This document shows, piece by piece, positions 8,499-48,096 of a stretch of 51,106 nucleotides of DNA. Numbering within the stretch: position 1 is the first letter of the stretch; each line of letters starts with the position of its first letter. Both the position numbers and the translations under genes were made by a program. Origin of the DNA: a virus (lineage: Duplodnaviria; Caudoviricetes); the IMG/VR virus record IMGVR_UViG_3300048599_000152, positions 1 through 51,106 of that record; one strand, 5' to 3'. Below the pieces are notes generated by a model. The model searched no databases. It was given only the letters and a program-made list of their open reading frames with translations, and was not told the origin of the DNA.

Positions 8499-8507
8499 AT
8501 ACGGGGT

Positions 8508-31920: not shown

Positions 31921-33138
31921 TCAGCCGTTGGCGCCGGTGAAGACGACCAGCCCGTTGCGGTGACGGAGGCCCGTCTCGCCGTTGCCCAGGTCAACCTCGA
32001 CCATGGGGATGCCGCCGTCGTCGCTGTCAGCGGCCTCAGCGGCCGGCTGGGCGGGTGCCGAGAGGGCCGGCGCGGTGCCGGCCCCCGCCTCGTTGATGGC
32101 CGTGATCGCCGTGTTGATGCGGTCCTGCCACCACTTGCTGACCACCTTGGTGTCGACCGTGCCGAGGTCGCTCAGGTCGTAGACCGCGCTGGCCTCGTTG
32201 ATGGCCTCGACCAGCTCGTTGGCGGCTGCCACGCGCTCCTCCTTGGTGGCCTTCGGGCTGCCCATCAGGTCGCGGTAGATGCTCAGGCTCGGCTCGTACT
32301 TGGCGGCCTGCCATGCCTCGGCGTCCCAGCCCATCCGGGCGGCCGTGCGGTACGTCTCGCAGGCTTCGGTCTGGATGGTGTACGTGCCCTTGTCAAGGAC
32401 CGTCAGGCCGCAGGTGTAGACCCGCTTGCCCTTCAGGTTGGTGACCAGCTCGGCTCCGCAGCGCGGGCAGTAGGTCGCGTCGGCGGCCGGCCGCGTGGAC
32501 TCCACCTTCGGGGTCTTGGCGGCCTGCTTGGCGGCCTTCTCCTTGGCGATGCGCTCGGCCTTGATCTTGGCGTTGCCGGCCTTGATGGCCTCGGCGTTGC
32601 GCTCATGGATCGCCCCGATGTGGGCGTTGGCTTCGTCGCGGAGCTTGGCCTGCTCAGCCTTACGGGCTGCCACGTACTCCTGCTCGGTGGCCAGCCTGTC
32701 GGCCTGCAGCCTGTCGAGGCTGGCGTCGACCGCGTTGTCGAGCGCCTCGTCGAGGTCCTCGCTCTCGGTCAGGTCCAGGCCCTCGCTCAGCTCCTCGCGG
32801 TCGGCCTCGAGGAGCGCCTCGCCGGCGGCCTTCATGGCCGTGACCTTGGCCTCGATGTCGGCCTTGATGCTCTCCTCGACCCCGGTCTTGGGGGCGCGGC
32901 GCGGCTTGGAGGCGGTCGCAGGGTCGGCCTTCTCGGCCGTCTCCGTGCCCTCGGGGATGCGGGTCGCCATCAGGGCCTTGGCGGCCTTGGCGTCGACCGT
33001 CAGGCCGTTCGGCTTCAGGTTGACGTACTGCGGGCGGCCGGTCTTGTTGGCCTTGGTCTGGGCGGCGGCGGCTGCGTCGTCGAGGTCGGCGTAGTAGGTG
33101 GTCTTGCTGGTCTTGGCGGCGGCGGTGGTGGTGGTCAC
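31921..33138 (-). CDS. Ala/Lys/Glu-rich early protein with a CxxC motif
   Basis: 405-aa ORF with strong SD, directly behind the TTGACA promoter. Confidence 0.75.
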   Translation of the reverse strand: MTTTTAAAKTSKTTYYADLDDAAAAAQTKANKTGRPQYVNLKPNGLTVDAKAAKALMATRIPEGTETAEKADPATASKPRRAPKTGVEESIKADIEAKVTAMKAAGEALLEADREELSEGLDLTESEDLDEALDNAVDASLDRLQADRLATEQEYVAARKAEQAKLRDEANAHIGAIHERNAEAIKAGNAKIKAERIAKEKAAKQAAKTPKVESTRPAADATYCPRCGAELVTNLKGKRVYTCGLTVLDKGTYTIQTEACETYRTAARMGWDAEAWQAAKYEPSLSIYRDLMGSPKATKEERVAAANELVEAINEASAVYDLSDLGTVDTKVVSKWWQDRINTAITAINEAGAGTAPALSAPAQPAAEAADSDDGGIPMVEVDLGNGETGLRHRNGLVVFTGANG

Positions 33139-33183
33139 GGTGGCTCCTCTCGTTGGGCCGGCGGCCCGTTGCTGGGTGAGTCC

Positions 33184-33213
33184 ACTCTACTCCTACTTGT
33201 GCCAGCTTGTCAA
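33184..33213 (-). promoter_or_regulatory. Leftward sigma70-type early promoter (copy 2)
   Basis: TTGACA-18-TAGAGT on the minus strand. Confidence 0.7.
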
Positions 33214-33478
33214 ATACTTGAGGACCATGCTTCGTTAGGAGGCTGAGCACGTGTCGCCTGCCGAGACGACGTGGCAATGGCCCTCCCGCAGCGGCAGGGC
33301 TCGTGGGATGGGGGTGCCGCTCAGACTCGCTGACCGACAAACAGAAGGCACAGGGCCGACCGGCTTCTGTCGACCTACACGGCCCGGCGCGAGGACGACA
33401 GCGCTAGAAGCGGCGGCTAGTTGCGGGCAGCGGTGCTCAGCCCGATAGACGATCTCGTAGGGGAAAGACAGTCTGCCT

Positions 33479-33507
33479 TTCGCGCACGCTCAGGCTCGTG
33501 ATAGCGT
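33479..33507 (+). promoter_or_regulatory. Candidate cassette promoter (Pc-like)
   Basis: TTCGCG-17-TAGCGT about 55 bp upstream of the first GTTRRRY. Confidence 0.35.
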
Positions 33508-33540
33508 CATATACAGAAGGCGGTTGTCTGTGTCGATGAC

Positions 33541-33571
33541 AAACGCAGACTGTCTAATAGTAGTTAGGCCC
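33541..33571 (+). other. attI-like recombination site
   Basis: GTCTAA-TAGTA-GTTAGGC simple site; GTTAGGCCC is complementary to the R'' of cassette 1 (GGGCCTAAC, 34027-34035). Confidence 0.6.
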
Positions 33572-33607
33572 ACTGGTGAGCGGTAGGCGACGTCCCGGCG
33601 AAGGAGG

Positions 33608-34000
33608 GTGCACATAGTGAGCGGCACGACCCTCTGGGAGTACGCGGTTCTCGCGGCCATTGCCTTCGTCCTGCCTCTCGCGCTCCTCGTCTGCGCCGGT
33701 TTCGCTTCCGGCGGCGTCTCGCCCCGACTGCGCTCCGTCGCGCTCGTGCTGCTCGCAGCTGGCGTCCTCGTGCTCCTGCGTCAGGTGCTGCGCACCGGCA
33801 TCGGCGACCTCATGCCGCTGTTTGCGATCCCGGCGCTGATCGCCGCCGCCGTCCTGTACCCGCTCACGGCCCTGACGCTCGTGCGTTCGGCGTCCGGCCG
33901 CCACGGGCGCCTCACCTCCGCGTCCGCCGCTGTCATCCTCCTCGCAGCGTCGGCGCTCGTGCAGTTCGCTGGGCCGTGGATGCTGACGTCGGGGCAGTGA
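33608..34000 (+). CDS. Cassette 1: 4-TM membrane protein
   Basis: AAGGAGG SD, four hydrophobic segments. Confidence 0.8.
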   Translation: MHIVSGTTLWEYAVLAAIAFVLPLALLVCAGFASGGVSPRLRSVALVLLAAGVLVLLRQVLRTGIGDLMPLFAIPALIAAAVLYPLTALTLVRSASGRHGRLTSASAAVILLAASALVQFAGPWMLTSGQ

Positions 34001-34028
34001 TGTCACACTGCCACGACACCCGCACGGG

Positions 34029-34118
34029 GCCTAACAAGCGCGTCAACCTGACGCGGCCAACGGTTTCTGTAATAACTTGGATCCGCAGCCCGCGCAGGTT
34101 ACGCGCACGACGTTGGAC
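34029..34118 (+). other. attC site 1
   Basis: GCCTAAC AAGCG CGTCAACC TGACGCGG...CCGCGCA GGTTACG CGCACGAC GTTGGAC. Confidence 0.92.
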
Positions 34119-34136
34119 AGACCGGGTCGAAGTTGG

Positions 34137-35483
34137 ATGGGGGGTCCAGTGAAGCAGGATGGTGATGCCGCCGCAGTTGATGCATCGCGGTTGAGCCTCG
34201 TCGCCCTCGCCGCCGCTGTCGGGGCCGCTCTGCTGACTGTCCCATTCGCGGCTGCCCTCATCTCGTCCATCCGTCTCTGGGACTGGAACTTCAGCCGCTT
34301 CTCCGACGGCCTCGTCGGCCTCGGCATGCTGGCGTGGCTGACGCTGACCGCAGCGGCCCTCGTCCTCGGCATCGTGCAGCTACTGCGGCGCGGCCATCGG
34401 AGGCGCATGCCTGTCGCCGCCGCCGCCCTCGGCGCCGCATCTCTGCTCGTCATCGTCCCGCTGGCGATCGCCGCCAATCGAAGCCCCACCTACCGGATCG
34501 AGGCGGGTCCCCCATTGGCGGCGAGCCCCGGCCAGTTCGTCGCCGCCCTGGAGGTGCACGGCTTCCTCGTCACGAGCGCCGACGGTGGAGCCACCTGGAC
34601 CGAAGATGTCCTGGGCTCCTCGCCCAGCCTCCTGATGCCTTGGAGCGTCGCCTTCACTGATCCGCAGCGAGGCTGGGTCATGGGCAGGGACCCAGGCGCG
34701 GTGCTTACTACTACCGATGGAGGCGCGACCTGGGCGTCGTCCAAGGTGCGCGGCATGCGTCTTCTCAACGCTCTCGCCAGCAGCGACGCCCGGCATGTGT
34801 GGGTCGCGGGTCGCCGCACCGAGGACCTGCCGGGCGTCGCTGCCAGCGCCGACGGCGGGGCCACCTGGACGGCGCACGCCGTGCCCGGTCGCGGGGTCCT
34901 CAACTCGATCGCGTTCCCGGACTCCCGCCATGGCTGGGGCGTAGGCCTGGACACCGGCGCATCCTGGCACGGGTACATCGTCGCCACCACGGACGGCGGT
35001 CGGCACTGGCGGACGCAGTTCCGCACAGATTCCAGCAAGATGAGCCTCGGCCGCGTCACCTTCGCAGACGCACGCCACGGGTGGGTCGCCGGCACGCTCT
35101 CGAAGCCTTCGGGCTCCGGCGGCGACGCCGGAGTCATCTTGGCGACGGACGACGGCGGGGCGACGTGGGAGGTCCAGTACGAAGCCCGGCTTCCTCTCTA
35201 CCCCGTGACGTGCGCGGATGCGATGCACGCTTGGGCCGCCGGGCACGACGGCCTCATCATCGCCACGAGCGACGGCGGCAAGTCGTGGCGCGAGCAGCCC
35301 TCGGGCACGAGCCAGCCGCTCCGGGCGATATCCTTCAGCGATTCCCGGCACGGCTGGATCCTCGCTGGGCGCGGGGCCCTCTTGGCGACCGCGGACGGCG
35401 GCGCCAGCTGGACCAAGGTGAAGATGGGGCCGGGTACCTTCGTGATCGACGTCGAAGCCTCGTCGACAGCAGCAGCTCGGTAG
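34137..35483 (+). CDS. Cassette 2: 3-TM anchor plus BNR/Asp-box (YCF48-like) beta-propeller
   Basis: Seven (T/S)xDGGxxW Asp-box repeats; start at 34137 or 34149, after attC1. Confidence 0.88.
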   Translation: MGGPVKQDGDAAAVDASRLSLVALAAAVGAALLTVPFAAALISSIRLWDWNFSRFSDGLVGLGMLAWLTLTAAALVLGIVQLLRRGHRRRMPVAAAALGAASLLVIVPLAIAANRSPTYRIEAGPPLAASPGQFVAALEVHGFLVTSADGGATWTEDVLGSSPSLLMPWSVAFTDPQRGWVMGRDPGAVLTTTDGGATWASSKVRGMRLLNALASSDARHVWVAGRRTEDLPGVAASADGGATWTAHAVPGRGVLNSIAFPDSRHGWGVGLDTGASWHGYIVATTDGGRHWRTQFRTDSSKMSLGRVTFADARHGWVAGTLSKPSGSGGDAGVILATDDGGATWEVQYEARLPLYPVTCADAMHAWAAGHDGLIIATSDGGKSWREQPSGTSQPLRAISFSDSRHGWILAGRGALLATADGGASWTKVKMGPGTFVIDVEASSTAAAR

Positions 35484-35521
35484 CTTCGGGCCGGAGGCCG
35501 ATGGGTGACCGCGAGAGGGCT

Positions 35522-35608
35522 GTCCAACAAGCGCATGGAGCAGAACGCCACACGGTCTGCCGTGAACCGGCAGGTCAGCCGCGTCTGCTCATGCGCGGTG
35601 CGTTGGAC
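35522..35608 (+). other. attC site 2
   Basis: GTCCAAC AAGCG CATGGAGC AGAACGC...GCGTCT GCTCATG CGCGGTGC GTTGGAC. Confidence 0.92.
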
Positions 35609-35677
35609 CGACGGTTGCCCAGCGGCGACGGGAGTCAGGGCACGAGGCGTGCGCGCTGCTAGAGGCCTCCGGAGGCG

Positions 35678-36295
35678 ATGAAGGGAAGCATGGACGAAGA
35701 ACCCACCGGCAACAGCGAGAAGAGCGCGAGGGAGAGGCGCTCGGCTCCCGGGCGCACCATCCTCGAGTACGTGGTCCTCGCGGTCGTCGCGATCGCCGTC
35801 GCACTCCTCATCCAGGCGTTCCTCGTCAAGCCGTACCGCATCCCCTCACCGTCCATGGAGGACACGCTCCTGGTCGGGGACCGCGTGCTCGCCGACCGCA
35901 TCTCGTGGCGCTTCTCCGATCCACAGCGCGGCGACATCGTCGTCTTCCATCCGCCCGGACCGGGGCCTGTGCTCATCAAGCGCATCGTGGGGCTGCCCGG
36001 CGAGACCATCTCGCTGCGGAACGGCGAGGTGTATGTCAACGGCAAGATGTTGGAAGAGCCCTATGTGCGCCGGGTGGATGGCAGCCCCGAGCCCACGGAA
36101 CCGTTCACCACGGGACTCCCTTGGGCGCTCCAGCAGCCTTTTACAGTGCCGGCAGGCAGCTACTTCATGATGGGCGACAACCGCACCGACAGCGGCGACA
36201 GCCGCGACTTCGGGCCCGTCGCGCGCGACCAGCTTGTAGGTCGGGCCTTCGCTCGCTATTGGCCGGTCGGGCGCATCGGCGGTCTGGGCGGATAA
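35678..36295 (+). CDS. lepB: Cassette 3: signal peptidase I (S26)
   Basis: IPSPSMEDTL (Ser), RGDIVVF, IKRIVGLPG (Lys), GDNR..S.DSR.FG. Confidence 0.95.
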   Translation: MKGSMDEEPTGNSEKSARERRSAPGRTILEYVVLAVVAIAVALLIQAFLVKPYRIPSPSMEDTLLVGDRVLADRISWRFSDPQRGDIVVFHPPGPGPVLIKRIVGLPGETISLRNGEVYVNGKMLEEPYVRRVDGSPEPTEPFTTGLPWALQQPFTVPAGSYFMMGDNRTDSGDSRDFGPVARDQLVGRAFARYWPVGRIGGLGG

Positions 36296-36344
36296 TCATG
36301 CTACGACACCGGCGGGGCACAGGCGGGGGGCCGCAGTTGTCGCG

Positions 36345-36434
36345 GTCCAAAAAGCGGATCAAGCTGGCTCGCAGCAGCGCCGGCGGCCTCGCGGGAGGCC
36401 AACGCGCTCGCAGCTTATCCGCGGTGCGTTAGCC
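36345..36434 (+). other. attC site 3 (R'' AAC changed to AAA)
   Basis: GTCCAAA AAGCG GATCAAGC...GCTTATC CGCGGTGC GTTAGCC. Confidence 0.88.
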
Positions 36435-36456
36435 GCACCGGTCCGGGAGGCCCGCC

Positions 36457-36765
36457 ATGACCGATAGGCATGCAGCCATCGTCCCCGTTGACTCGGCTCG
36501 GCGGCATGTTTCGACCTGGCAACTGACTGCCGCAGCAGTCTGCCTCATCGCAGGCTACTGGCTCATGGCGTTCGCTACCGACAGGGCGTGGCTGTACCTG
36601 CCGAGCGTTGTCCTGCAGGCTCTTGCCGTCGGCCTGCCCGTCCGGGCGCTCACCAGGGACCAGAAGAGGTGGCCTTGGACCGCGATCCTCGTCGCGGAGG
36701 GCGTGGTGGCACTACTCACTATCATCGACCTGTTCTTCGCGGCGCTGTTCTCGTGGGGCGGCTAG
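36457..36765 (+). CDS. Cassette 4: 3-TM membrane protein
   Basis: GGAGG SD, three hydrophobic segments, stop codon inside the R'' box. Confidence 0.8.
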   Translation: MTDRHAAIVPVDSARRHVSTWQLTAAAVCLIAGYWLMAFATDRAWLYLPSVVLQALAVGLPVRALTRDQKRWPWTAILVAEGVVALLTIIDLFFAALFSWGG

Positions 36766-36790
36766 CATGCGGATCAAGCTGGCTCGCCCG
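36760..36790 (+). other. attC site 4, left half only (degenerate)
   Basis: GGCTAGC ATGCG GATCAAGC TGGCTCGC; 19 nt identical to attC3; no matching L'/R' found. Confidence 0.75.
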
Positions 36791-37030
36791 AGGGCCGTCT
36801 GACCGGTTACCGTCGTCAGGGGCAGGGGCAGGTGTCGCCTGCCGTATTGACCTCGCGTCGCTCAAGCACCTGTCGGAGACCTTCAAGAATGCTCCGAAGG
36901 CTGGCAGCTTGTTCTACAACCCTGGCGACGCCGAAGGCTGAAGTTCGCGCCCATCGATGACGATAGCTGTTAGGCGCAGGTAGGCGCAGGTATACTCCTG
37001 ACGACCACCCCTGCCCCCAATGGAGCCCAC

Positions 37031-37285
37031 ATGTCGCGACGCAAGACCATACCGGGTCCTGCCGGTCAGCCAATTGAAGTCGAACCCATTCCGTTTCGGA
37101 GCGGTCAGGAGAACTGGAACGACTACTTCCTTGAGGACGGCACGGTCTTGCGTATGAAGACCGTCGTGACCGAGGTTCAGCGGGCTGTGGATGCCTACGA
37201 TCAGGACGGGAACCCGATGTACATCGTCAGGTCGGCGAACGTGCTCAACGTTGACGCTCCCGACAAGCTGCGGAGGCCGGAATGA
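37031..37285 (+). CDS. Hypothetical protein upstream of hicBA
   Basis: ENWNDYFLEDGTVLRMK; ATGA-coupled to the next gene; TATACT at 36991. Confidence 0.75.
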   Translation: MSRRKTIPGPAGQPIEVEPIPFRSGQENWNDYFLEDGTVLRMKTVVTEVQRAVDAYDQDGNPMYIVRSANVLNVDAPDKLRRPE

Positions 37286-37767
37286 CGCCCGAACTCATGG
37301 CAAAGGATCCATGCCTAGGACAGCTTCTCGTCTTCGACCAGGGGTCCGGCAAGGCGCATGCCCGCGAGGACTCCAGCGAGGCTAGGTGCAGGCTCGTCAG
37401 GCAGGAAGAGCGGCGTGCCGCGCCGCACTATCGCGGCATGTGGGGCGAGGTCCTGTCCTCAAGCGGGGAGGTTTTGGGTGGCATGGCACCAGTCGACGTG
37501 AGAGAGGAGCTGCTACGTCGGTACGCCGAACTAGCGGCCAGCTTGGCAGAGCCGGGCGTGCGCCAGCTTGAAGACAGCGACGAGTGGTATGTGGACCTGA
37601 TAGGTCTTCCGGGAGCGTGGGCGACGGGCGGTACTCCGTGGCTGGCGCTCGAAGACTTCCGGTCTGTCGTCCGTGAATGGGTCGAACTGAAGCTTGAGCA
37701 CGGTGATCACGACATCCCGTCGCTCGGCGGCATCGACGTCTGCCTTCTCTCCCAGCCTGCCGTTTGA
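37282..37767 (+). CDS. hicB: HicB-like antitoxin with N-terminal extension
   Basis: C-terminal W.VDL.GLPGAWATG.T...AL......W...IP HicB-type fold; adjacent to hicA. Confidence 0.7.
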   Translation: MTPELMAKDPCLGQLLVFDQGSGKAHAREDSSEARCRLVRQEERRAAPHYRGMWGEVLSSSGEVLGGMAPVDVREELLRRYAELAASLAEPGVRQLEDSDEWYVDLIGLPGAWATGGTPWLALEDFRSVVREWVELKLEHGDHDIPSLGGIDVCLLSQPAV

Positions 37768-37773
37768 CCCTCG

Positions 37774-38001
37774 GTGACAGCCCCGGGATCAATCTCGCGG
37801 CGTGACCTCGTGCGTGTTCTGAGAGGTTTCGGCTACGAGGGTCCGTTATCCGGTGGGAAGCACCAGTTCATGCGACGCGACCTGAGGACCGTCCGCATCC
37901 CGAATCCCCATCACGGCGATATCTCGTGGAGCCTCGCCAAAGAAGTCCTGCGCCAGGCTGGGATAGACGTGGACGCTGCCCTGAGATTTCTGGGCAGCTA
38001 G
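37774..38001 (+). CDS. hicA: HicA mRNA interferase toxin
   Basis: LR.FGYEGP.SGGKHQFM...VRIPNPH.GDI...L..VLRQAGI. Confidence 0.9.
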   Translation: MTAPGSISRRDLVRVLRGFGYEGPLSGGKHQFMRRDLRTVRIPNPHHGDISWSLAKEVLRQAGIDVDAALRFLGS

Positions 38002-38070
38002 CTCGCGGGAGGGCAGCCTCGGCGCGAGCCTTCCTTCCCTGACGTCAGAGGGCCGTGATAGCCTTCGCTC

Positions 38071-39711
38071 GTGTCCGAGAACGTGCTGTACTACGGCGAT
38101 AACCTCGATGTCCTGCGACGCCACGTCGCGGACGAGTCGGTTGACCTCGTCTACCTGGACCCGCCGTTCAACAGCAACGCCACGTACAACGTTCTCTTCG
38201 CCGAACACCACGGCGAGCGGGCCGCGAGCCAGATCAAGGCGTTCGAGGACACGTGGACGTGGGACTACACGGCCGAGTGGAGCTACCGGCAGACGGTGGA
38301 GGCCGGCGGGCAGGTGTCCAAGGCGCTGCAGGCTTTCCACACGCTGCTGGGGCCGTCGAACATGCTCGCCTACCTCGCCATGATGGCCCCGCGCCTTGTG
38401 GAGCTGCGCCGGGTGCTCAAGGACACCGGCAGCATCTACCTCCACTGTGACCCGACGGCGAGCCACTACCTCAAGCTCCTGATGGACGCCGTGTATGGGC
38501 CCGAGCACTTCCGGGGTGAAATCTGCTGGCAGCGGTCGACGGCCAAGGGCCACGCGTTCACGCGCTACCCCGCCGCTCAGGACTCGCTGCTTTACTATTC
38601 GAAGAGCGAGACGCCGACGTGGCACACGCAGCACCTACCCCACCGGCCTGAGTACATCGAGAGCCACTATCGGAACATCGAGTCAGAGACTGGCCGGCGC
38701 TACACGCTCGGCGACTGCCTGAATCCGAACCATGATCGGCCGAATCTCACCTATGAGTGGAACGGCCTGACGCGTGTCTGGCGATGGACGCCCGAGAAGA
38801 TGCAGGCGCTCCATGACGCCGGCCGGCTTGTCTACACGAAGTCGGGAATGCCGCGCTACAAGCGCTATCTGGACGAGATGCCCGGCACGGCGGTCACCAC
38901 CGTCTGGACGGATATCCCGCCCCTCAACTCTCAGGCGGCTGAGCGGCTTGGTTACCCGACGCAGAAGCCCGAAGCCCTCCTCGAGCGCATCATCGCGACG
39001 AGCAGCAACCCCGGAGACGTAGTGCTTGACCCCTTCTGCGGCTGCGGAACCGCCGTGTCGGCCTCTCAGAACCTCGACCGCCGCTGGGTCGGCATCGACA
39101 TCACGCATCTCGCCGTGACCCTCATCAAGTCGCGGCTGCTGGACGCTTTCAAGCTGGAGGCAGGCAAGGACTACAAGGTGATCGGCGAGCCGGTGTCCCA
39201 GCCCGATGCCGAGGCGCTGGCGGCGTCGGACCCGTGGCAGTTCCAGTGGTGGGCCCTCGGCCTCGTAGGTGCCCGGCCTGTCGATCAGAAGAAGGGTGCT
39301 GACCACGGCATCGACGGTCGCCTGTACTTTCACGACGAGCCGGGAGCGAACACGAAGCACATCGTCCTGTCCGTGAAGGCGGGCCAGAACGTAGGCGTGG
39401 GCGCGGTGCGCGACCTCGGCCACGTCGTGAAGCGAGAGGGCGCGGCCATCGGCGTCCTCCTGACCATGCGGGAGCCCACCAAGCCAATGAGGACCGAGGC
39501 CGCCGAGGAAGGCTTCTACGACTCGCCTTGGGGCGGCAGCTACCCCCGTCTGCAGATCCTCACCGTGGCCGAGCTGCTGGACGGCAAGCGCATCGACTAC
39601 CCCAACGTCGAGGGCATGGACCGAACCTTCCGCAAGGCACCACGGGCAGGGGCAAAGGCGGCCGACGTGCTGACCCTCGACCTCGACGGCGGGGTGCCGG
39701 TCGAGGACTAG
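38071..39711 (+). CDS. N6/N4 DNA methyltransferase fused to an Mrr-like endonuclease domain
   Basis: YLDPPFNS, YPTQKP, VLDPFCGCGT; C-terminal ADHGIDG...SVKAG. Confidence 0.9.
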   Translation: MSENVLYYGDNLDVLRRHVADESVDLVYLDPPFNSNATYNVLFAEHHGERAASQIKAFEDTWTWDYTAEWSYRQTVEAGGQVSKALQAFHTLLGPSNMLAYLAMMAPRLVELRRVLKDTGSIYLHCDPTASHYLKLLMDAVYGPEHFRGEICWQRSTAKGHAFTRYPAAQDSLLYYSKSETPTWHTQHLPHRPEYIESHYRNIESETGRRYTLGDCLNPNHDRPNLTYEWNGLTRVWRWTPEKMQALHDAGRLVYTKSGMPRYKRYLDEMPGTAVTTVWTDIPPLNSQAAERLGYPTQKPEALLERIIATSSNPGDVVLDPFCGCGTAVSASQNLDRRWVGIDITHLAVTLIKSRLLDAFKLEAGKDYKVIGEPVSQPDAEALAASDPWQFQWWALGLVGARPVDQKKGADHGIDGRLYFHDEPGANTKHIVLSVKAGQNVGVGAVRDLGHVVKREGAAIGVLLTMREPTKPMRTEAAEEGFYDSPWGGSYPRLQILTVAELLDGKRIDYPNVEGMDRTFRKAPRAGAKAADVLTLDLDGGVPVED

Positions 39712-39759: not shown

Positions 39760-41133
39760 ATGGCAAGCGGGCACATTCGCAGAGCACGGCGGGACGGCAA
39801 AGTTATCAAGGACTGCTGGGACGTGCAGGCCGAGCTGGGGGCCTACGTCGATGCCCAGGGCGAGCGCCAGCGCCCCCGCAAGACCGCGAGGGTCCACGGG
39901 CTGCGCGAGGACGCGGAGCGCGTACTGACGCAGCTCAAGCACGAGCTGGACACGGGCGTGGTCATCGACCCGAAGAAGCTCACGGTGGCCGACCTGCTCG
40001 ACCGCTGGCTGGACGACTACGCCCGGCAGGATGGCAAGCTCTCCCCCACAACCCTCCGCGGCTACGAGGACATCGTGCGGATCCACCTGAAGCCCCGGCT
40101 GGGCAAGGTGTCGCTGGCCAAGCTCCAGCCGATGCAGATTCAGGCGTACTACACCCACGCCCTGAAGGCCGGCAAGCAGAGCCGCGTCAAGGAGAAGCCG
40201 GCGGTGCCGGCGCGGCCGGCCAAGGGCAGGCGAAAGGCGAAGCCCGCCAAGCCAGCGGTCAAGAAACCCGCGCCCACTGGCCTGTCGCCGGCCACCGTCA
40301 TGCAGCACCACACAGTCCTGCACGAAGCGCTCCAGTACGCCGTGGGCCTGCGGCTGCGCAAGGACAACCCGGCGTCCGCAACGGAGCCCCCGTCTGTGCC
40401 CCTCCAGCGCCGGCAGAGGCGGCGGCCACGCGCCCTGCCACCTACGGGCCTCGCTCACGTGATCGCGGCCTCTGAGGGGACGGACATGTACCTGCCTGTC
40501 GTCCTCGCGGCCACCACCGGGATGCGGCGCTCCGAGCTGTGCGGGCTCAGGTGGCGTGACGTGGACCTCAAGGCCAAGCGGGTGTTCGTCGACGAGCCGC
40601 TCGTCCACGACGGGACGCGGGCCCTCGTCCACAAGGAGCCCAAGTCGGCGGCCGGCCGGCGGGCCATCCCCATCGGGGCGCTGACGGTCCGGGCCCTGAA
40701 GGAGCAGCGCGCTGATCAGGGACGCCGGCGCAAGGCGCTGCGCGGCAAGTACCGGGACGAGGGGTACGTCATCGACGAGTACGCCGGCGGGCCCGTGCGC
40801 CCCGACACGCTGTCCTCGCGCTGGCGTGCCCTGGCGATCCGCGCCGGCGTGGAAGGCTACCGGCTCCACGACCTGCGCCACTCCTACGCGACGGAAATGA
40901 TGGAACACGAGCACCCGAAGCTCGTCAGCGAGCGCCTCGGGCACAGCACCGTGGCCTTCACGATGCAGACCTACCAGCACGTCGGAGAGGACGCTCACCG
41001 AGCAGCGGCGGACGCTTTCGACGCCCGCCTCGCAGACGCCGATCCCGCAGATTGGGCAGACAATGGGCAGACAAACGCCCCCGTCCAACGGCTGCGACGG
41101 GGGCGTTCATCGGGCAAAAGTCCTGCAAAATGA
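39760..41133 (+). CDS. int: Prophage tyrosine integrase
   Basis: GMRRSE, LHDLRH, LGH, TYQH; stop codon abuts the att core. Confidence 0.95.
   Translation: MASGHIRRARRDGKVIKDCWDVQAELGAYVDAQGERQRPRKTARVHGLREDAERVLTQLKHELDTGVVIDPKKLTVADLLDRWLDDYARQDGKLSPTTLRGYEDIVRIHLKPRLGKVSLAKLQPMQIQAYYTHALKAGKQSRVKEKPAVPARPAKGRRKAKPAKPAVKKPAPTGLSPATVMQHHTVLHEALQYAVGLRLRKDNPASATEPPSVPLQRRQRRRPRALPPTGLAHVIAASEGTDMYLPVVLAATTGMRRSELCGLRWRDVDLKAKRVFVDEPLVHDGTRALVHKEPKSAAGRRAIPIGALTVRALKEQRADQGRRRKALRGKYRDEGYVIDEYAGGPVRPDTLSSRWRALAIRAGVEGYRLHDLRHSYATEMMEHEHPKLVSERLGHSTVAFTMQTYQHVGEDAHRAAADAFDARLADADPADWADNGQTNAPVQRLRRGRSSGKSPAK
41052..41073 (+). repeat. Prophage arm-type repeat
   Basis: Identical to 1449-1470. 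Confidence 0.8.
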
Positions 41134-41134: not shown

Positions 41135-41180
41135 TGGTAGCGGCGGTAGGACTCGAACCTACGACACGCGGATTATGATT
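41135..41180 (-). repeat. att core (prophage / satellite junction)
   Basis: 46 bp identical to the tRNA-Met 3' end (50077-50122). Confidence 0.95.
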
Positions 41181-41296
41181 GCGACCCAGCCCGTGACGCG
41201 CTCTGACGGGTCATGCCGGAATCGCGGTCTGTGCAGGGACTTTGCGAGTCCGACTGCCGACTCCGTGTCGGCTCCTGTCGCCCTCTGACGGACGGC

Positions 41297-41316
41297 TGCC
41301 TAGCAAACGCCTAGCA
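41297..41316 (+). repeat. Satellite arm-type repeat GCCTAGCA x2
   Basis: Same motif at 49937-49994 and inverted at 45684-45703. Confidence 0.8.
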
Positions 41317-41376
41317 GTAAGGTAGGCTTGCGGCTGTAGCAGCCCGGCAGCGCGCGAGATCAAGAGGGGTTGGCAT

Positions 41377-42144
41377 ATGAGCGATGGGCCCACTTCCAAC
41401 GGTAGCGTGAGCGAATCCCAGCCAAAGGCCGAGGCGGTGCGGCCTGCGTCACCGGCGCCCGCACGGCCCAAGTGGGAGACTGAGGCCCGAGAAAGGGTCA
41501 AGAACGCGGTCAAGAAGTTCAACAGGCCCTTGGCCGACCTGTTGACGCGAGACGCGAATGAGGGCGACACGCGCTTGGCCGTCACTGACTTCCTTTGCGA
41601 GGGTCTCGGATACGACAAGTACATCGACCTGACGACCGAGTACGCGGTGAGAGGCGAATTCGCTGACTACGGCGTGCGCATCGACAAGGAAATCGTGGCG
41701 TTCATCGAGGTCAAGCGGATTGCCACCAAGCTCAACGGCAAGCACCTTCGCCAGGTACAGACGTACGCGGTGAACGAGGGCGTCGAATGGATGATCCTGA
41801 CGAATGGCGCGGAGTGGCAGGCGTACCACCTCACGGGAGGGCTGCCAGTTGTCACGGAACTGGCCTTGTCCGTGAATCTCCTCGGCACCGAGACGGCCTC
41901 TCAGAAGGCCAAGGTGCTGTTCTACTTGACCCGTGAGTCATTCAAGAAGCGCCAGATCGACGAACTATGGAAGGCCCGCCGAGCCAGTTCCCCCGAAAGC
42001 CTCGCCAAGATCCTGCGGTCTGAATCCGTCCTGGAGGAGATCCGCCGGGAGCTGTGGCGACAGACACACCAACGGCTTGAGTCCGAGGAGTTGCTCAGGC
42101 TTCTTGAGGAAACGGTACTTCGACCGGAGTGTCTCGAAAAGTAG
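41377..42144 (+). CDS. Type I restriction HsdR N-terminal-like nuclease (putative defence)
   Basis: NEGDTR, LGYD, ADY, FIEVK, Q...YA, ILTNG..W. Confidence 0.8.
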   Translation: MSDGPTSNGSVSESQPKAEAVRPASPAPARPKWETEARERVKNAVKKFNRPLADLLTRDANEGDTRLAVTDFLCEGLGYDKYIDLTTEYAVRGEFADYGVRIDKEIVAFIEVKRIATKLNGKHLRQVQTYAVNEGVEWMILTNGAEWQAYHLTGGLPVVTELALSVNLLGTETASQKAKVLFYLTRESFKKRQIDELWKARRASSPESLAKILRSESVLEEIRRELWRQTHQRLESEELLRLLEETVLRPECLEK

Positions 42145-42299
42145 AGGCCCGCGAAAGACTGCCGACGGCGACGAGTGCCCCCGGCTCGGACAGAGGAAGA
42201 GCCCGGGAGCGGCCGACAGGGCTCCCGAGCTCTCTCATGCAGGTGAACTCCGCCGGCGCCGGACTCCGGCCTTGCCGCCCCTGAACCCTTCAAGCAGTG

Positions 42300-42551
42300 C
42301 TAGCCACCGTCTTCCGTGTCCTTCGGCCGCGGCTTCTGCCAAGGGCGCCGCGGACAGGTGGCAGCACTCTCGAGCATGGCCTCGCCCATGGCTGCCATCT
42401 TCGCGTCCCAGGCATCCCGCTCGGCCTGCATCTCGGCCTTGTGCTGCGCGTAGACCTCGGGCGCGATGTGCGTCGCCAGCGCGACGCTCATCTCGGTGTA
42501 GGTGAGCAGGAGTCGGTCGGCCTCCTGCCTCTGTTCGTCAGTCAGCCTCAC
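42300..42551 (-). CDS. Hypothetical protein
   Basis: MRLTDEQRQ... ORF at the end of the satellite operon. Confidence 0.45.
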   Translation of the reverse strand: MRLTDEQRQEADRLLLTYTEMSVALATHIAPEVYAQHKAEMQAERDAWDAKMAAMGEAMLESAATCPRRPWQKPRPKDTEDGG

Positions 42552-42615
42552 ATGGCACCCCTTCCAGAGCCGCGGCCGGCACGGCCGGGATCGTTTGGTC
42601 CGGCGCCGGACTTCC

Positions 42616-42873
42616 CTAGGCGCTCTCGCCAACTGCCAGCCGAGCCGCCCGAATCCGGGCATCGGCCGCCGCTACCGCCTTGACGAACGGAGCTTGAGCG
42701 TTCTGAACGTGGTACTGCTCTTGCAGCAGGGCCGTCCGCTCGGGCTCAGTGCCGGCGTGCGCGGCCTTGCTGCCCAGCTCGGCGTACTGCTCTTGCAGCT
42801 CACCGAGCTTCGCCGCGGGAGCTTCCCGCGATGCCTGTGCGGCCTTCAGTTCTGCGAGTGCGGCTTCCATCAT
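42616..42873 (-). CDS. Coiled-coil hypothetical protein
   Basis: ATGA-coupled to the upstream ORF. Confidence 0.55.
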   Translation of the reverse strand: MMEAALAELKAAQASREAPAAKLGELQEQYAELGSKAAHAGTEPERTALLQEQYHVQNAQAPFVKAVAAADARIRAARLAVGESA

Positions 42874-43085
42874 TCGCCATTCTCGGCGGGCTCGACGTGT
42901 GCCGCGTACTTCTCGGGAGTGATGCCCATGCGCTTCGCGGCTTCGAGTTGCAGCGGCGTGAGAGCTTTCGCGGCCTTCGTCGCGCGGTACGCCTCGGGAG
43001 TGACGCCGATGCGGCTGGCCAGGTACTCCTCTTCGGTGAGGTTGAGGGTTTCGCACACCTTCTGTTCGGCTGGGGTGAGTCCCAT
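42870..43085 (-). CDS. 71-aa protein of repeated scaffold-like helix-turn-helix motifs
   Basis: LNLTEEEY / IGVTPEAY / MGITPEKY repeats; AAGGAG SD. Confidence 0.7.
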   Translation of the reverse strand: MGLTPAEQKVCETLNLTEEEYLASRIGVTPEAYRATKAAKALTPLQLEAAKRMGITPEKYAAHVEPAENGE

Positions 43086-43089
43086 GGTC

Positions 43090-43638
43090 CTATTCTCCTT
43101 GCCGCTTCGCGGCGCTCGTGGGGGTGTCGACGTGGCAGCCGCAGAGGGCTTCGGCTAGGACGGACAGCACTGCCGCATCCGGCGCCGGGGCATTGCGGAG
43201 TGCGGCGATCTGCCCCTCGTGGTACTGGACGCGCTGAGTGAACGGCATCGCCTCCTCTTCGGCGGCAGTGAGCGCCGCACGCAGCTCCTGCATTCTCGGC
43301 GTGTTGCGATCCGGCTCGGGCTCAACACCCGCCGCCCCGTCTGCCTTGCGCGTGAAGTAGTCACGCAGGCGAGCTGAGATGGAGCCCTCCTCCCGGTCGC
43401 GTGCCTCGCGGGCCGCCTCGACGGCCGCCAGCGGCCCGGCAGCGGCCTCACGTGCCTTGCGGAGCGGCTCGCCCTCGAGCGCGTCCGCGAGCTCAGCGGC
43501 CTCCGCCTGCGTCAGGGCGGCGGCAAGGACGCTGAGCGCCTGCTCGCGGGACGCCTCAGTCAGGCGGCGCATGAGCTCCATTCCGGAGACTGCCATCACC
43601 CGTGGGTAGGTGGCCTGGTCGAACAGTTCTTGATTCAT
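43090..43638 (-). CDS. Alpha-helical hypothetical protein
   Basis: MNQELFDQ... with GAGG SD. Confidence 0.6.
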   Translation of the reverse strand: MNQELFDQATYPRVMAVSGMELMRRLTEASREQALSVLAAALTQAEAAELADALEGEPLRKAREAAAGPLAAVEAAREARDREEGSISARLRDYFTRKADGAAGVEPEPDRNTPRMQELRAALTAAEEEAMPFTQRVQYHEGQIAALRNAPAPDAAVLSVLAEALCGCHVDTPTSAAKRQGE

Positions 43639-43667
43639 CGTTCCTCGTTTCGTCCGTGGGTCCATGG

Positions 43668-44366
43668 TCAGAGGTAGTCGATGACGCCACTTGTGTAGGC
43701 GCCTTCGTCGATCAGGACGGCGAGCGCGGCGGCGCACACAAGGTCGTCGTGGTGGCCGGCGCGGGCGTTCCACTGCGGGGTCGCGTTGTCGTTCACGGAC
43801 AGCTCGAACGTCTTCAGCTCGTCAACGAGGTCGTCGGCGGCAGCGGAGCGCGGCCACTCGAGGCGCCCGAAGCCGATGAGCGACTGCAGCCTAGAGACCA
43901 AGTGCGACTTGCTGACGGTGCCGTCCTTGGCTCCCCGGTGGACGTTGCAGCCGCTGCCGGCGGTGAACATCACGCCCGTAAGGTGGCCCTCTTCGATGCC
44001 GGCGGACTCGCGCAGGAAGTCGACGACCGGCAGGCCGCAGCCGGTGGCGTCGACCATGACGTACACGCGCTCGCGAGCCCGCGGCTCCTGAGGCGGAAGC
44101 ATGCCGTCCGCGAACATGTAGCCGCCGCATCGGTAGTCGAACTCGGCCTGCTCAGAGGAGAGGCGGGCCACCACGAAGCTGTAGACGGCGGCCAGGCGTT
44201 CGGCCACCTGCGGGTACGAGGTCTGCAGGGCCAGGCGTTCGATGTGGTGGATTCGGTGCCGATCACGAGGGAGCTGCTCGGCGACGACCACGGCCGAAGG
44301 GTCGGCCCTCTGGCCGACGTCCACGCCGATGGTGATGGTGGTGGTCGGGACGGCTACGGCTTTCAC
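43668..44366 (-). CDS. Terminase large subunit, stand-alone RNase H-like nuclease domain
   Basis: IGVDVGQRADPSA, VDATG.G, HDDLV.A.ALA; GTGA overlap with the ATPase gene. Confidence 0.85.
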   Translation of the reverse strand: MKAVAVPTTTITIGVDVGQRADPSAVVVAEQLPRDRHRIHHIERLALQTSYPQVAERLAAVYSFVVARLSSEQAEFDYRCGGYMFADGMLPPQEPRARERVYVMVDATGCGLPVVDFLRESAGIEEGHLTGVMFTAGSGCNVHRGAKDGTVSKSHLVSRLQSLIGFGRLEWPRSAAADDLVDELKTFELSVNDNATPQWNARAGHHDDLVCAAALAVLIDEGAYTSGVIDYL

Positions 44367-45118
44367 GGGATCTCCCATTCCTCGCAGCTTGTGGAGTAGC
44401 AGGCTTCGATCTCGGCAGAGTTGAAGGCCGCGGCTTGGGCATCGCCGAACTCGGTTTCGTACTCCTGCCGGTAGAACCACTCGCCGAGCGCGGCCCTCTC
44501 TTCGGCGAGGAACGCCGGCGAGATGCGCGGGCACTTCGTAGCGGGGACGCGGTATCGCTGCCAGGACGGCCCGCCGTGCTCCCACGCTTCGAACCACCAG
44601 CCGCGGCGACCGAAGGGAGTCGAGAGGGCGATGAGCTGCCCGCCGGAGACGGCCAGCATTGGACGCACAGCGGCGATCACGTCGTCAGCGACTCTCGCGG
44701 CTTCGTCTACCAGCAGGAGGCGCACGGCACTGTAGGAGCGCACGGTGCCCTCAGTGCCCGGCAGGCTCACGATGCGGCTGCCAGACTCGAGGGAGAGCGT
44801 GGTGGCCGACTCGGCATCACTCGGGACCGGCCGGCCCAGGGACTTGTACACGGCCAGCACCTTGCGGAACAGCTCGCCGCTCTGCCGCTGAGAGGGCGAC
44901 AGGAGCAGGATGAGGCTGCCCGGCTCGTACACGGCCACGTGCACGGCCTTGGTGGCAACGGTGACGCTCTTGCCGCCTTGGCGGTGAACGTTGAGGAGCA
45001 CGCGGGGATGGTCGGTGCGCAGTACGTCCCGCTGCCAGGGGTCCGGGTCCATGCCGACGCCGCGGGCGAGCGTCACCGGGTCGAGAGCACGTGCCAGGTC
45101 GACAGCAAGCCGGCTCAC
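44363..45118 (-). CDS. Terminase large subunit, stand-alone ATPase domain
   Basis: PDPWQ, RQGGKS, LLLVDEAA, LSTP.G..GW, QEY..EF. Confidence 0.9.
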   Translation of the reverse strand: MSRLAVDLARALDPVTLARGVGMDPDPWQRDVLRTDHPRVLLNVHRQGGKSVTVATKAVHVAVYEPGSLILLLSPSQRQSGELFRKVLAVYKSLGRPVPSDAESATTLSLESGSRIVSLPGTEGTVRSYSAVRLLLVDEAARVADDVIAAVRPMLAVSGGQLIALSTPFGRRGWWFEAWEHGGPSWQRYRVPATKCPRISPAFLAEERAALGEWFYRQEYETEFGDAQAAAFNSAEIEACYSTSCEEWEIP

Positions 45119-45606
45119 TCCCCGGCCTCCAGCTCCAAGAGACGGCCCGAGACGGCGGCGCGAGCTTCGGGGTAGGACATGAGGGCGGAGAGGATCACAG
45201 CACGCATGGCGAGCCACTCAGGCGCCGTCTGCAGGTTGACCACGGTCACGGGCCGGGTGTCCAGCTCGCCCGTCGCCTTGCCGCTCAGCTCGAGGCAGGC
45301 GCGCAGTTCCTTGACGACGGCCAGGGCTTGCGACGTGCGGCCCTCGCCGGCGGCGGCCGCGAACATCGTCTCGCAGCGCTCAATCAGGGTCTCAATGCGA
45401 TCCGGCAGTGGTGCCCGGCCGTTCGTCTGCGCCGGTGCATCCACTGCGGCCAGGGCAGCGGACAGGTGGCGCCGGGCGTGCCGCTGTACGGCGGAGGGAC
45501 TCAGACCGAAGCGCTCGGCGATCACGTAGGAGGATTCGCCGCGCGTCACTGCCGCGTCGATTTCGGCGCGGTGTTCGTGCTCGCAGACTGTACAGATGCG
45601 GGCCAT
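45115..45606 (-). CDS. Putative terminase small subunit (HTH)
   Basis: CTVCEH, IAERFGLSPSAVQRH, GEL; coupled to the terminase ATPase. Confidence 0.65.
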   Translation of the reverse strand: MARICTVCEHEHRAEIDAAVTRGESSYVIAERFGLSPSAVQRHARRHLSAALAAVDAPAQTNGRAPLPDRIETLIERCETMFAAAAGEGRTSQALAVVKELRACLELSGKATGELDTRPVTVVNLQTAPEWLAMRAVILSALMSYPEARAAVSGRLLELEAGE

Positions 45607-45683
45607 GCTCAGACCCCGCGCAGCGGACTAGGAGTCCGCGTGTCGGCATGAAACAGGGCGGTATGCAGGGACTTCGGGAGGCG

Positions 45684-45703
45684 TGCTAGGCGTTTGCTAG
45701 GCA
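45684..45703 (-). repeat. Internal inverted copy of the satellite arm repeat
   Basis: 20/20 reverse complement of 41297-41316. Confidence 0.8.
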
Positions 45704-45888
45704 TCTGATACTGCCAGCCGCGGGGCGCTTCGCTTGCCAGGACTGCGCTACGCTTCACGGGGTCAGCGGTTCGCGCTCGACTCACAGCTCGCTTCCCTCT
45801 GTTCAAGTACTCCCCAAGTGCTCCCCGCTCTTTCGGGACGGGTTGGTCCTCAGGATGGTCCGTGGTCGAACAGGTGGGGCTGGTCCCC

Positions 45889-46053
45889 GGTTCCCGTCTA
45901 TAGACGGGGGAAACGGGAACCACTTGCCCGTGGTACTGGTTCCCGGTGGTTCCCAAGGTGGTTCCGGCCTCAAGAGCGGAGGTGGTTCCCGCTGGTTCCC
46001 GGGCTGGTTCCGAGGTCTGGGTGCTCGAGCTGGTTCCCGAGCTGGCGGGAACC
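45889..46053. repeat. Iteron-containing replication origin candidate
   Basis: Ten GGTTCC(C) copies (8 direct, 2 inverted) right after the helicase gene. Confidence 0.75.
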
Positions 46054-46066
46054 ACTTTGGCGATGC

Positions 46067-47038
46067 TCATGGGCGTCCTTCCCGGTGCTCGCGACGCCAG
46101 CGGAGGGCGGCTACCACGACCTGCCGGCGACGTCCTTCGTTCACGCTCTTGAGGGCCGCGCTGGCGGTCCTGCTGGAGGCGTCAAGGGGCACGCTCAGGC
46201 GGTCCAGGAGGTTGGCCGTCTCGCCGGTACCCGCCGGCCAGTCGTCAGTGATGGGGGCGTACCTGAGCGGATCTTCGAAGAGGCCGAGGTTGACCCGTTG
46301 GGGCACCCACGGCATCCGGGCCAGCTCGCGGTGCAGAGAGACGCCGCCCTGCGTCTGTACGAGCTTCCACGCGAGGTCCACATCGTCGCCCTTGGCGGAG
46401 CTCCCGCGCTGCCCCGCGCTGATGTCCTTGCCGCCGTGGTCGAGTCGCGCCCAGGTCACGCCGCGCCGCTTGAGGCGGATGCCGGTGTGTGAGTAGAAGT
46501 CTCGGAACGTGTCGGCGCTGTTCTCTTCGCCGCAGACGGCGCGGCTGATGGTGTCGATGATGACCACGAGGTGATGGTCCGGGAAGTCCCCCTGTACGCC
46601 GTCCACGAGCACCATGAGCGCATCGGCGCCGGTCACGGTGTCGAGGGGCGGCAGCGTCGGCAGGAGGGCGTAGCGGAGTCGCGAGAGGTCGCTGCCGGGG
46701 CCGTGGCCCATGTCCTCGAGGCGGTCGAAGATGTCGGCCTCGGTCATCTCGTAGTCGAGATAGAGCACGGCGTTCCGATCCTTGCCGGTGGCGAGCTGGA
46801 CGGCCAGGAACAGCATGAGGAGGGACTTGCCGGCCTTGTGGGCGGCATAGAGAGCATGGCCGCGCCCGCGTGCGAGCACGTCCGGGTACACCCACTCGGC
46901 CTCTTCATGGTCGCGAGCCCAGAACGTCGGCCAGTCGATGAAGACGCCGGCCGGCGTTCCTGCGTCCTGGCCGTCTCCCGGCTCGGGGTACTGTTCGGAG
47001 AAGCCGCGGATCTCGGCCGTGAAGTCGACGGCGGTCAC
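46067..47038 (-). CDS. RecA-family (RepA / AAA_25-like) helicase
   Basis: Walker A AAHKAGKS, VLYLDYE, Walker B VVIIDT, RGSSA. Confidence 0.85.
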   Translation of the reverse strand: MTAVDFTAEIRGFSEQYPEPGDGQDAGTPAGVFIDWPTFWARDHEEAEWVYPDVLARGRGHALYAAHKAGKSLLMLFLAVQLATGKDRNAVLYLDYEMTEADIFDRLEDMGHGPGSDLSRLRYALLPTLPPLDTVTGADALMVLVDGVQGDFPDHHLVVIIDTISRAVCGEENSADTFRDFYSHTGIRLKRRGVTWARLDHGGKDISAGQRGSSAKGDDVDLAWKLVQTQGGVSLHRELARMPWVPQRVNLGLFEDPLRYAPITDDWPAGTGETANLLDRLSVPLDASSRTASAALKSVNEGRRRQVVVAALRWRREHREGRP

Positions 47039-48006: not shown

Positions 48007-48060
48007 CTCGTCACCTCCAAATCGTTCGTGAATCCCTAGTGACGAGCTGACGGTACGTCT

Positions 48061-48089
48061 TTGACTAGGACCCTACAAGGCCCTATACT
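48061..48089 (+). promoter_or_regulatory. Sigma70 promoter for a leaderless regulator-integrase transcript
   Basis: TTGACT-17-TATACT, ATG 7 nt downstream. Confidence 0.75.
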
Positions 48090-48096
48090 CCTGTGC

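Follow-up and report, generated by a model that had tools for sequence, protein, structure and literature searches.

The attachment site attI of an integron, as exemplified by attI1 of the class 1 integrons, lies at the head of the cassette array, where an R box of the form GTTRRRY supplies the G after which the first cassette begins, while an L box in inverse orientation stands a few bases before that R box, and within any one family of such sites conservation extends up to the crossover point only. The subject here is a site sharing these features, at positions 33421-33569 on the plus strand of a provirus record of 51,106 bases (IMG/VR record IMGVR_UViG_3300048599_000152, of a virus of the Caudoviricetes; this whole stretch is called the window in what follows). 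As judged from its sequence, this segment is very probably the head of a truncated integron, comprising an attI and the final 26 codons of a gene for an integron integrase (intI), and now lying inside a temperate phage. It differs from known attI sites in that it lies downstream of the 3' end of intI and overlaps it, intI being directed toward the cassettes, in that an inverted repeat of about 11-15 bp, conserved and extending over some 90 bp, is part of it, and in having no sequence similarity to them beyond the core; in the window, moreover, the integrase has been cut down to those 26 codons.

The closest layout is that of integrons of the Treponema denticola type, in which intI is transcribed toward attI (PMC3607928). 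Integrase and cassettes are co-oriented in both cases and attI comes after the 3' end of intI, but the present family belongs to the phylum Actinomycetota, class Thermoleophilia, and its attI overlaps the coding tail of intI. Phage-borne integron fragments have also been published already: in Qi et al. 2023 (PMC9892861), temperate phages of Vibrio anguillarum are described as carrying fragments of chromosomal integrons, and mention is made of a class 1 integron mosaic in the Escherichia coli P1 phage and of attC clusters in virulent phages. In common with the V. anguillarum prophages, the present case involves a temperate phage with a segment of the sedentary chromosomal integron of its host lineage, attC sites of the host type and a toxin-antitoxin pair nearby; in contrast to them, the host is a high-GC (guanine plus cytosine) Gram-positive bacterium, the piece keeps an attI and a truncated intI rather than being a whole integron or attC sites alone, and the fragment lies within the phage genome rather than at the prophage edge.

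A further point of comparison is the CALIN, defined in the IntegronFinder publication (PMC9024848) as an attC cluster without an integron integrase. With three full attC sites (at least two being required) and no integrase gene within reach, the window would be labelled a CALIN by automatic tools, from which it differs in that an attI and an intI stump are attached, so that the entry point of the array can be identified. As regards taxonomy, the same publication, on IntegronFinder 2.0, gives no complete integron in Actinobacteria among complete RefSeq genomes, while a review (PMC8618304) includes Actinobacteriota among the phyla with detected integrons. No integron structure in Thermoleophilia was found in the full-text literature as judged from titles and the openings of abstracts, the supplementary tables of surveys lying outside this material, and nothing specific was found in the literature combining the terms “integron-integrase”, Actinobacteriota and attC. 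The integron family of Thermoleophilia thus seems to be undescribed.

That the host of the prophage belongs to the Thermoleophilia is indicated by the tRNA-Met gene at which it is integrated, an exact 44-mer of which occurs at 60 loci titled almost without exception as metagenome-assembled genomes of Thermoleophilia, Actinomycetes or Actinomycetota. The curated integron-integrase model TIGR02249 (cut-off 265 bits) was run on five genomes matched through this tRNA. One of these, G002, has an intact IntI of 331 amino acids (465 bits; locus L135, G002:C5:542407-543345), in which one stretch resembles the IntI-specific insertion; in another, G001, IntI is frameshifted and truncated. In a sample of 401 Thermoleophilia genomes, IntI exceeded the cut-off in 53, which contrasts with surveys of complete genomes that treat Actinobacteria as nearly free of integrons.

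It is to the DNA at the end of such genes that the head in the window is related. Positions 33433-33567 are 81% identical to the DNA spanning the intI stop codon of G002, down to GTTAG, and the head is 90% identical to its counterpart in G031 (L137), where a full-length IntI match of 330 residues ends at the head; for G031 the blastn alignment covers window positions 33420-33570 at 88% (L171, 8986-9137). An earlier note on this DNA had put forward, as a check, an alignment to the attI of the host's own integron; in integrons of other Thermoleophilia genomes, the 3' end of intI and the non-coding DNA behind it are homologous to 33421-33569 at 77-90% identity. With the 137-nucleotide head as query, 30 of the 401 genomes gave a match at E<=0.01; where E was below 1e-9, the 24 places listed had matches ending at query positions 88-137, in 20 cases at 132-137, which puts these ends at G|TT or just past it. 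Because it is homologous to the DNA following intact intI genes, and because this similarity stops at G|TT, the head is, by homology, an attI and not a degenerate attC. The source indicated by the same alignments is a chromosomal integron family of Thermoleophilia in which intI runs toward the cassettes and overlaps attI with its 3' end.

The remnant of intI itself occupies 33421-33501 on the plus strand (codons at 33421-33498, TGA stop at 33499-33501) and is apparent from tblastn, blastn and translation alike; an in-frame TAG stands directly upstream, at 33418-33420. In tblastn, window positions 33433-33498 correspond to residues 310-331 of the G002 IntI at 82%, the C-terminal end ...SPIDDLVGERQSAYDARTGS of the latter being represented by ...SPIDDLVGERQSAFRARSGS in the window. 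Upstream of 33420 there was no match to any of the integron loci fetched, and nothing in the window scored above the TIGR02249 cut-off, the best match reaching 42 bits and all matches lying in three phage-type integrases; the intact integrase of a complete integron is thus absent. The head, which in the window adjoins 26 codons only, adjoins intact intI in some of its homologues: it overlaps the stop codon of an intact intI in L135 (G002), L137 (G031) and L145 (G139), whereas in L139 and L178 the intI match that it follows is partial because the contig ends there. In all five of these loci, which are the heads with a long IntI match, intI is co-oriented with head and cassettes. It had been supposed earlier that only non-coding DNA is present where intI normally sits divergently, but in fact the stump lies upstream and on the same strand. 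The associated idea of an integrase-less platform, made up of attI and a cassette promoter (Pc), survives as regards attI but not as regards a platform that never had an integrase: with its intI located upstream in the same orientation, and 26 codons of it still present, what the window contains is, to all appearances, a truncated integron.

How far the site extends can be seen from an alignment of 20 head sites (the window and 19 homologues in other genomes). Expressed as mean pairwise identity, conservation is 0.53 in the upstream segment, 0.77 in the repeat's left arm, 0.62 between this arm and the core, 0.83 in the core (GGCTCGTGATAGCGTCATATACAGAA, columns 68-95), 0.71 in the next stretch, 0.78 in the right arm and L box, 0.67 in the spacer and GTT, 0.45 in the four bases after GTT and 0.30 beyond GTTRG. 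The pattern is that of an attI family, conserved (0.77-0.83) up to the crossover and unrelated (0.30) beyond it; GTT stands at its column in 17 of the 20 sequences, and CTAAT of the L box is kept in 14. Roughly 15 of the 20 heads have no full intI adjacent to them, and in heads without intI identity stays at 0.71-0.83 over the whole stretch bounded by the left arm and GTT, while their flanks are unalignable. The earlier note had proposed to test whether the site is conserved in sister phages while the sequence after G|TT changes; no sister phage was found in the searches run, and the boundary has instead been seen in chromosomal relatives. The cassette boundary falls between G33563 and T33564, where the putative crossover would also lie.

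Within the window, the simple site of the attI comprises an L box, GTCTAAT (33552-33558), inversely oriented and upstream of the R box, a 4-nucleotide spacer, AGTA, and the R box itself, GTTAGGC (33563-33569), the whole spanning 33552-33569 on the plus strand. The inverted repeat consists of AGACAGTCTGCCTTT at 33466-33480 and AAACGCAGACTGTCT at 33541-33555, complementary at 14 of 15 positions. Its left arm, which lies within the C-terminal tail codons of intI, forms the outer edge of the conserved attI, and most of the core pairing of the right arm (columns 41-51 against 122-132) is retained. These strings were reported correctly in the earlier note, as was the fact that the first GTTAGGC has no attC R'' box before it: there is no RYYYAAC box upstream of the left arm.

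Taken by themselves, such features are unremarkable. For GTTAGGC the window has three occurrences where 2.76 are expected (three or more were seen in 53 of 100 shuffled sequences), and for AGACNGTCT two where 0.74 are expected (19 of 100 shuffles had two or more); the repeat in the head does not rank among the 25 longest of the 147 inverted pairs in 32500-39000; and folding of the head gives z = -1.1 for the top strand and -2.2 for the bottom strand. A comparison of 33100-38100 with Rfam found no family at E<=1, and the motif of the head has no other occurrence in the 51-kb window. Each feature alone is within the level of chance, and that the site is real is indicated by its conservation in the 19 homologous sites.

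A separate line of evidence comes from the cassettes. The spacers following the first three plus-strand genes of the array are imperfect palindromes of 87-90 nucleotides bounded by RYYYAAC and GTTRRRY, namely attC1 (34029-34118), attC2 (35522-35608) and attC3 (36345-36434), all on the plus strand. They were assigned from their fold and from a covariance model, R1, built from these same three sites (90, 93 and 87 bits respectively); in attC1 and attC2 the same arm carries two bulged bases, in attC3 there is a single one. Since in an integron the first six bases of a cassette pair with its own R'' box and not with that of its neighbour, the bases directly after the G of the R box can be checked against the attC site that closes cassette 1. 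They do pair: TTAGGC (33564) matches R'' GCCTAA (34029) at 6/6, although the adjoining R' is GTTGGAC. Cassettes 2 and 3 both start with TTGGAC, end with GTCCAA and pair 6/6, while for cassette 4 TTAGCC against GGCTAG gives 5/6 by eye. Among 15 heads including that of the window, pairing is 6/6 in ten and 5/6 in one; in L167 and L178 it is also 6/6 if R'' is read one base off the start given by the model, which would make 12 of 15. The R box at 33563-33569 thus combines the expected sequence, a cassette junction after its G and pairing with the distant R''.

The same type of attC accompanies the relatives of the head. Of 15 loci retrieved with wide flanks, all but L175 (where the contig ends 372 nucleotides after the head) and L181 gave R1 matches of 24-87 bits that lie beyond the head and on its strand (13 loci), and R1 also found sites at 50-58 bits directly beside the intI genes of G002 and G001, with arms almost identical to those of attC1-3; one locus, L173 (G139:C4), holds at least eight attC sites. 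By comparison, R1 gave just three weak matches (E 0.34-0.74) in the 60 tRNA-Met loci, and a gapped attC pattern found in 62 viral loci was put down to chance matches, as none of the 25 best-folding ones inspected was attC-like. There is in addition a shorter attC-like element in these genomes (...CAGACTGGATAACC ... GTTRRSS; L136 18690-18795 and L135 2040-1890, the latter on the minus strand), which follows the first cassette in G002, replaces the integrase from its HSFATH motif onward in G001, and is not detected by R1.

Four cassettes can be delineated, all on the plus strand. Cassette 1 (33564-34112) has an open reading frame (ORF) of 127-130 amino acids (33608/33617-34000) with attC1 and encodes something like a membrane protein, as judged by eye, having no Pfam or PHROG match. 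Cassette 2 (34113-35602, with attC2) encodes a BNR/Ycf48-like repeat protein (ORF from 34077 or 34149 to 35483; PF14870, 9.6e-24), and cassette 3 (35603-36428, with attC3) a signal peptidase I of family S26 (35678-36295; PF10502, 4.7e-53). Cassette 4 (36429-36797) contains an ORF of 102 amino acids (36457-36765), without Pfam or PHROG match, and the left half of an attC: there is an R''-like GGCTAGC (36759-36765), followed at 36769-36797 by a stretch 86% identical to the left arm of attC3, but R1 gave no match and no full attC was found in this region. Position 36797 is probably the right-hand break of the captured fragment. A GTTAGGC at 36969, with no attC after it, may be a further cassette boundary or a chance occurrence. 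It was also seen that a stretch of 32 nucleotides just left of the integron fragment (33232-33263) is 78% identical to one just right of its probable end (36813-36844), with an exact 13-mer in common that includes a GTG start, which in the first copy stands behind a Shine-Dalgarno-like AGGAGG; the similarity does not extend further, and could be due to chance or be a trace of insertion.

Turning to transcription, the promoter suggested earlier has the strings TTCGCG (33479-33484) and TAGCGT (33502-33507) in the place given for them, 17 nucleotides apart, and of its two halves it is the second that is conserved. TAGCGT follows directly after the intI stop codon and, together with the TG upstream of it, forms TGATAGCGT (33499-33507, plus strand), a candidate extended -10 of Pc that overlaps this stop codon; its pattern TGnTAnnnT is kept in 17 of the 20 aligned sequences and lies inside the most conserved block. 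TTCGCG, proposed as the -35, is kept in 8 of the 20. A role of TGATAGCGT as an extended -10 is plausible, with a candidate start at about 33513-33515, so that a leader of about 100 nucleotides would precede GAAGGAGG, the ribosome-binding site in front of the GTG at 33617. As for the arms of the repeat, each is near-palindromic (GCAGnCTGY, also AGACnGTCT), a third copy of GTCTG being present at 33526-33530; 78% of the cells for arm pairs in the alignment are paired, and one pair appears as G-U, A-U and G-C in 11, 4 and 4 sequences respectively. Counting pairs in this way left the choice between hairpin and binding sites undecided, and the arms may be accessory integrase-binding sites or a structural part of attI.

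The alternative contained in the earlier note, that the head is a heavily degenerate attC left behind as the tail of a lost upstream cassette, takes its appeal from the fact that a 15-bp inverted repeat, then 7 nucleotides, then GTTAGGC, does look superficially like L''/L' and R'. It is hardly credible and has been rejected, as there is no R'' box, R1 finds no match at E<=10 with its filters off, the arms contain a mismatch where attC1 and attC2 have two bulged bases, and the same sequence overlaps and follows the intact intI stop in L135, L137 and L145. Very unlikely too is a phage regulatory region, in which the inverted repeat and promoter would represent repressor operators that happen to neighbour the array. 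The position of the site, in the divergent region that separates the leftward phage operon from the genes running rightward to the integrase, would suit such a region, as would the AGACnGTCT near-palindrome in each arm, which is of a kind often found in operators; but all of 33421-33569 is homologous to chromosomal integron heads near intI and near host genes such as pntB (in L135 and L180), the head is missing (no blastn match at E<=0.01) from 13 viral loci encoding ParB-methylase proteins, which are the only phage relatives found, and the motif is confined to this one place in the window.

More serious, though still doubtful, is the idea that the site is an attI by descent only and now an inert relic, captured once, on which no integrase acts any longer and whose cassettes have become ordinary phage accessory genes. 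The cutting down of intI, the truncation of the fourth attC and the lack of an integron integrase anywhere in the record are all as one would expect on this basis, and the many aligned heads that lack an adjacent full intI may reflect mere decay. Against this, those heads retain the stretch from the left arm to GTT while their flanks do not align, which points to continuing selection, and quite different first cassettes still obey the pairing rule; in G360 an intact IntI (470 bits, C13:128018-128971) lies on the same contig as an intI-less head, and G031 and G139 each have one complete integron and a second head. Heads without intI that have different first cassettes obeying the pairing rule argue, on sequence grounds, that cassettes were inserted at G|TT after the loss of intI or independently of it.

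To return to the preferred reading, namely an integron head with an attI carried by a temperate phage, its mechanism may be pictured as follows. A piece of about 3.4 kb would have entered the phage by illegitimate rather than site-specific recombination, the former being favoured because both ends of the fragment are broken (intI at about 33420, the fourth attC at about 36797), and would have come to lie, with its three to four gene cassettes, between the leftward phage promoter and the methylase-integrase module. The L and R boxes would form the simple site at which IntI carries out the crossover, cassettes 1-4 would be transcribed in the lysogen from the conserved -10, and an integron integrase of the host, acting in trans, might even now bring cassettes in or take them out at G|TT.

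Several points weigh against taking this picture too far. There is no intact intI in the window, and the action of a host integrase in trans is an assumption only; no sister phage was found that would attest to a stable platform in this phage lineage. A scan with a sigma-70 consensus does not call TTCGCG-17-TAGCGT, and its -35 is poorly conserved; the conserved core could be a region bound by integrase instead of a promoter. Covariation in the arms is weak (in three pairs both partners vary, and scores as high as the one observed came up in 15 of 500 shuffles), and, the arms being near-palindromic, a hairpin is indistinguishable from a protein-binding role. As computed, pairing of the first cassette fails in 4 of the 15 heads (L135, L167, L172 and L178), two of these being rescued only by the shift of register, and L135 has after its first cassette a different and shorter attC-like site, as read by eye.

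It is a tentative suggestion, then, that temperate phages and satellite-like elements encoding capsid proteins in Thermoleophilia carry integrase-less “docking ports” made up of attI and Pc, whether or not a stump of intI is present, on which the IntI of the host would act in trans. If this is true, such an element could exchange its accessory genes for cassettes from the pool of each new host and ferry cassettes between hosts, and the accessory region of the phage would be an integron array under host control; if the host integrase does act in trans, phages would serve the cassette pool as vectors and at the same time make use of it. Whatever the answer, the Thermoleophilia integrons, with an attC type of their own, a co-oriented integrase and a well-conserved attI, provide a defined attI for a Gram-positive family, the window presents such an attI travelling inside a temperate phage with cassettes that look live, and the conserved site of 100 bp is a concrete substrate for recombination or promoter assays.

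Other mobile elements were met with beside heads lacking intI. In two genomes (L167 2167-12356, G327:C3; and L172, G360:C13) such a head with one cassette lies in an element of about 9 kb, flanked by two tyrosine integrases and encoding a phage capsid protein, a prohead protease, FtsK-like and helix-turn-helix proteins; the junction upstream of the head in this satellite-like element is the same in both. At three further loci (L177 5017-6511, L179 8061-9991 and L170 10213-11102) a phage-type tyrosine recombinase is placed divergently, 75-600 nucleotides upstream of the head, mimicking the classical integron layout.

Contigs of four sequencing runs from four studies (X1, X5, X6 and X8) were aligned to 33100-36500; among the 18 runs listed, none of which is RNA, none has more than 13% of the sampled words of this region. 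A 502-nucleotide contig of X1 covers 33563-34062 with 2 differences in 500 nucleotides and begins 2 nucleotides before the G, and a second contig of this run covers 34036-34114 and then continues for 220 nucleotides unlike the window, while in X6 the same cassette is present in pieces, with no differences, and ends at 34115. Homologues of the head were found in X5 (33433-33569) and, with unlike sequence on both sides, in X8 (33462-33567), both ending at the R box. Contig ends thus fall at the predicted cassette boundaries and cassette 1 is seen in other contexts, contig ends being weak evidence. Cassette 1 (33563-34115) has 0-2 differences in X1 and X6, which belong to two different studies, and the summed contig depth of attC regions reaches several hundred in X8, so that this attC type is abundant in some communities.

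As regards the wider setting, codon-position GC content together with Pfam and PHROG scans indicate three integrative elements in tandem at a single tRNA-Met gene, the intact copy of which lies on the minus strand at 50077-50153 (tRNA gene scan). A 46-nucleotide 3' part of this gene has exact copies at 1287-1332 and at 41135-41180 (plus strand), the third copy being that at 50077 (to 50123), and just to the left of each copy is the gene of a phage-type tyrosine integrase (74-1180, 39760-41133 and 48624-49952). Because the first two copies are the left and right attachment-site copies of the middle element (about 1333-41134, some 40 kb), the array is placed inside it. This element is a siphovirus-like prophage, whose sole integrase between the 46-nucleotide repeats, at 39760-41133 on the plus strand, is a tyrosine integrase of phage type by Pfam and PHROG and not an integron integrase (22.5 bits with TIGR02249 against the cut-off of 265).

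On the minus strand the prophage has genes for a RuvC-like resolvase, single-strand-binding protein, replication initiator and exonuclease, for an endolysin, tape-measure protein, major capsid protein, portal and large terminase, for two ParB-like proteins and for a protein of 405 amino acids (31921-33138). Ahead of the last of these, a promoter-like site directed leftward, TTGACA-18-TAGAGT (minus strand, 33213-33184, with 10 of 12 consensus positions), is the only promoter-like match of the sigma-70 consensus scan in 33100-34200 and shows the DNA on the left side of the fragment to be that of the phage; to the right of it every gene is on the plus strand. The flagged site accordingly sits in a prophage, between divergent transcription units. 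The 16-mer CCAGCTTGTCAAATAC is present twice in the window, in the regions 33184-33221 and 8466-8502 (second copy at 8487); on the minus strand both copies have TTGACA-18-TAGAGT or TAGACT (the second as read by eye), and they may be copies of one strong phage promoter heading two leftward gene blocks.

Between the array and the phage integrase stand, on the plus strand, an ORF of 84 amino acids, a toxin-antitoxin pair of the HicB-like and HicA-like kinds (37282-38001) and, at 38071-39711, a DNA methylase with an Mrr-like nuclease domain fused to it; a relative of the methylase (71-77% nucleotide identity) was found in L103, beside an attachment-site copy in a different element. Searches for relatives of the phage DNA around the head gave little. 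For the 405-residue protein there was none in viral, genome or metagenome contigs; the ParB-methylase protein had 13 viral loci (46-50% identity; GC 0.48-0.54) having only a three-gene module in common, and the head had no blastn match to them at E<=0.01; megablast of 32000-36000 against phage records gave no match; a 24-mer of the head and its conserved 26-mer core each had 0 matches in viral contigs; and blastn against plasmids gave three short lepB fragments only.

Of the two elements flanking the prophage, the leftmost extends beyond the window, and L088 is 85% identical in nucleotide sequence to its integrase region. The third element (41181-50076) looks like a phage satellite: it is without capsid or tail genes but has two overlapping ORFs (43668-45217) that match a large terminase in its N- and C-terminal parts respectively, an AAA_25 protein (46067-47083), helix-turn-helix proteins and its integrase, and relatives of it are present in L103, L109 and L174 at 70-74% nucleotide identity.

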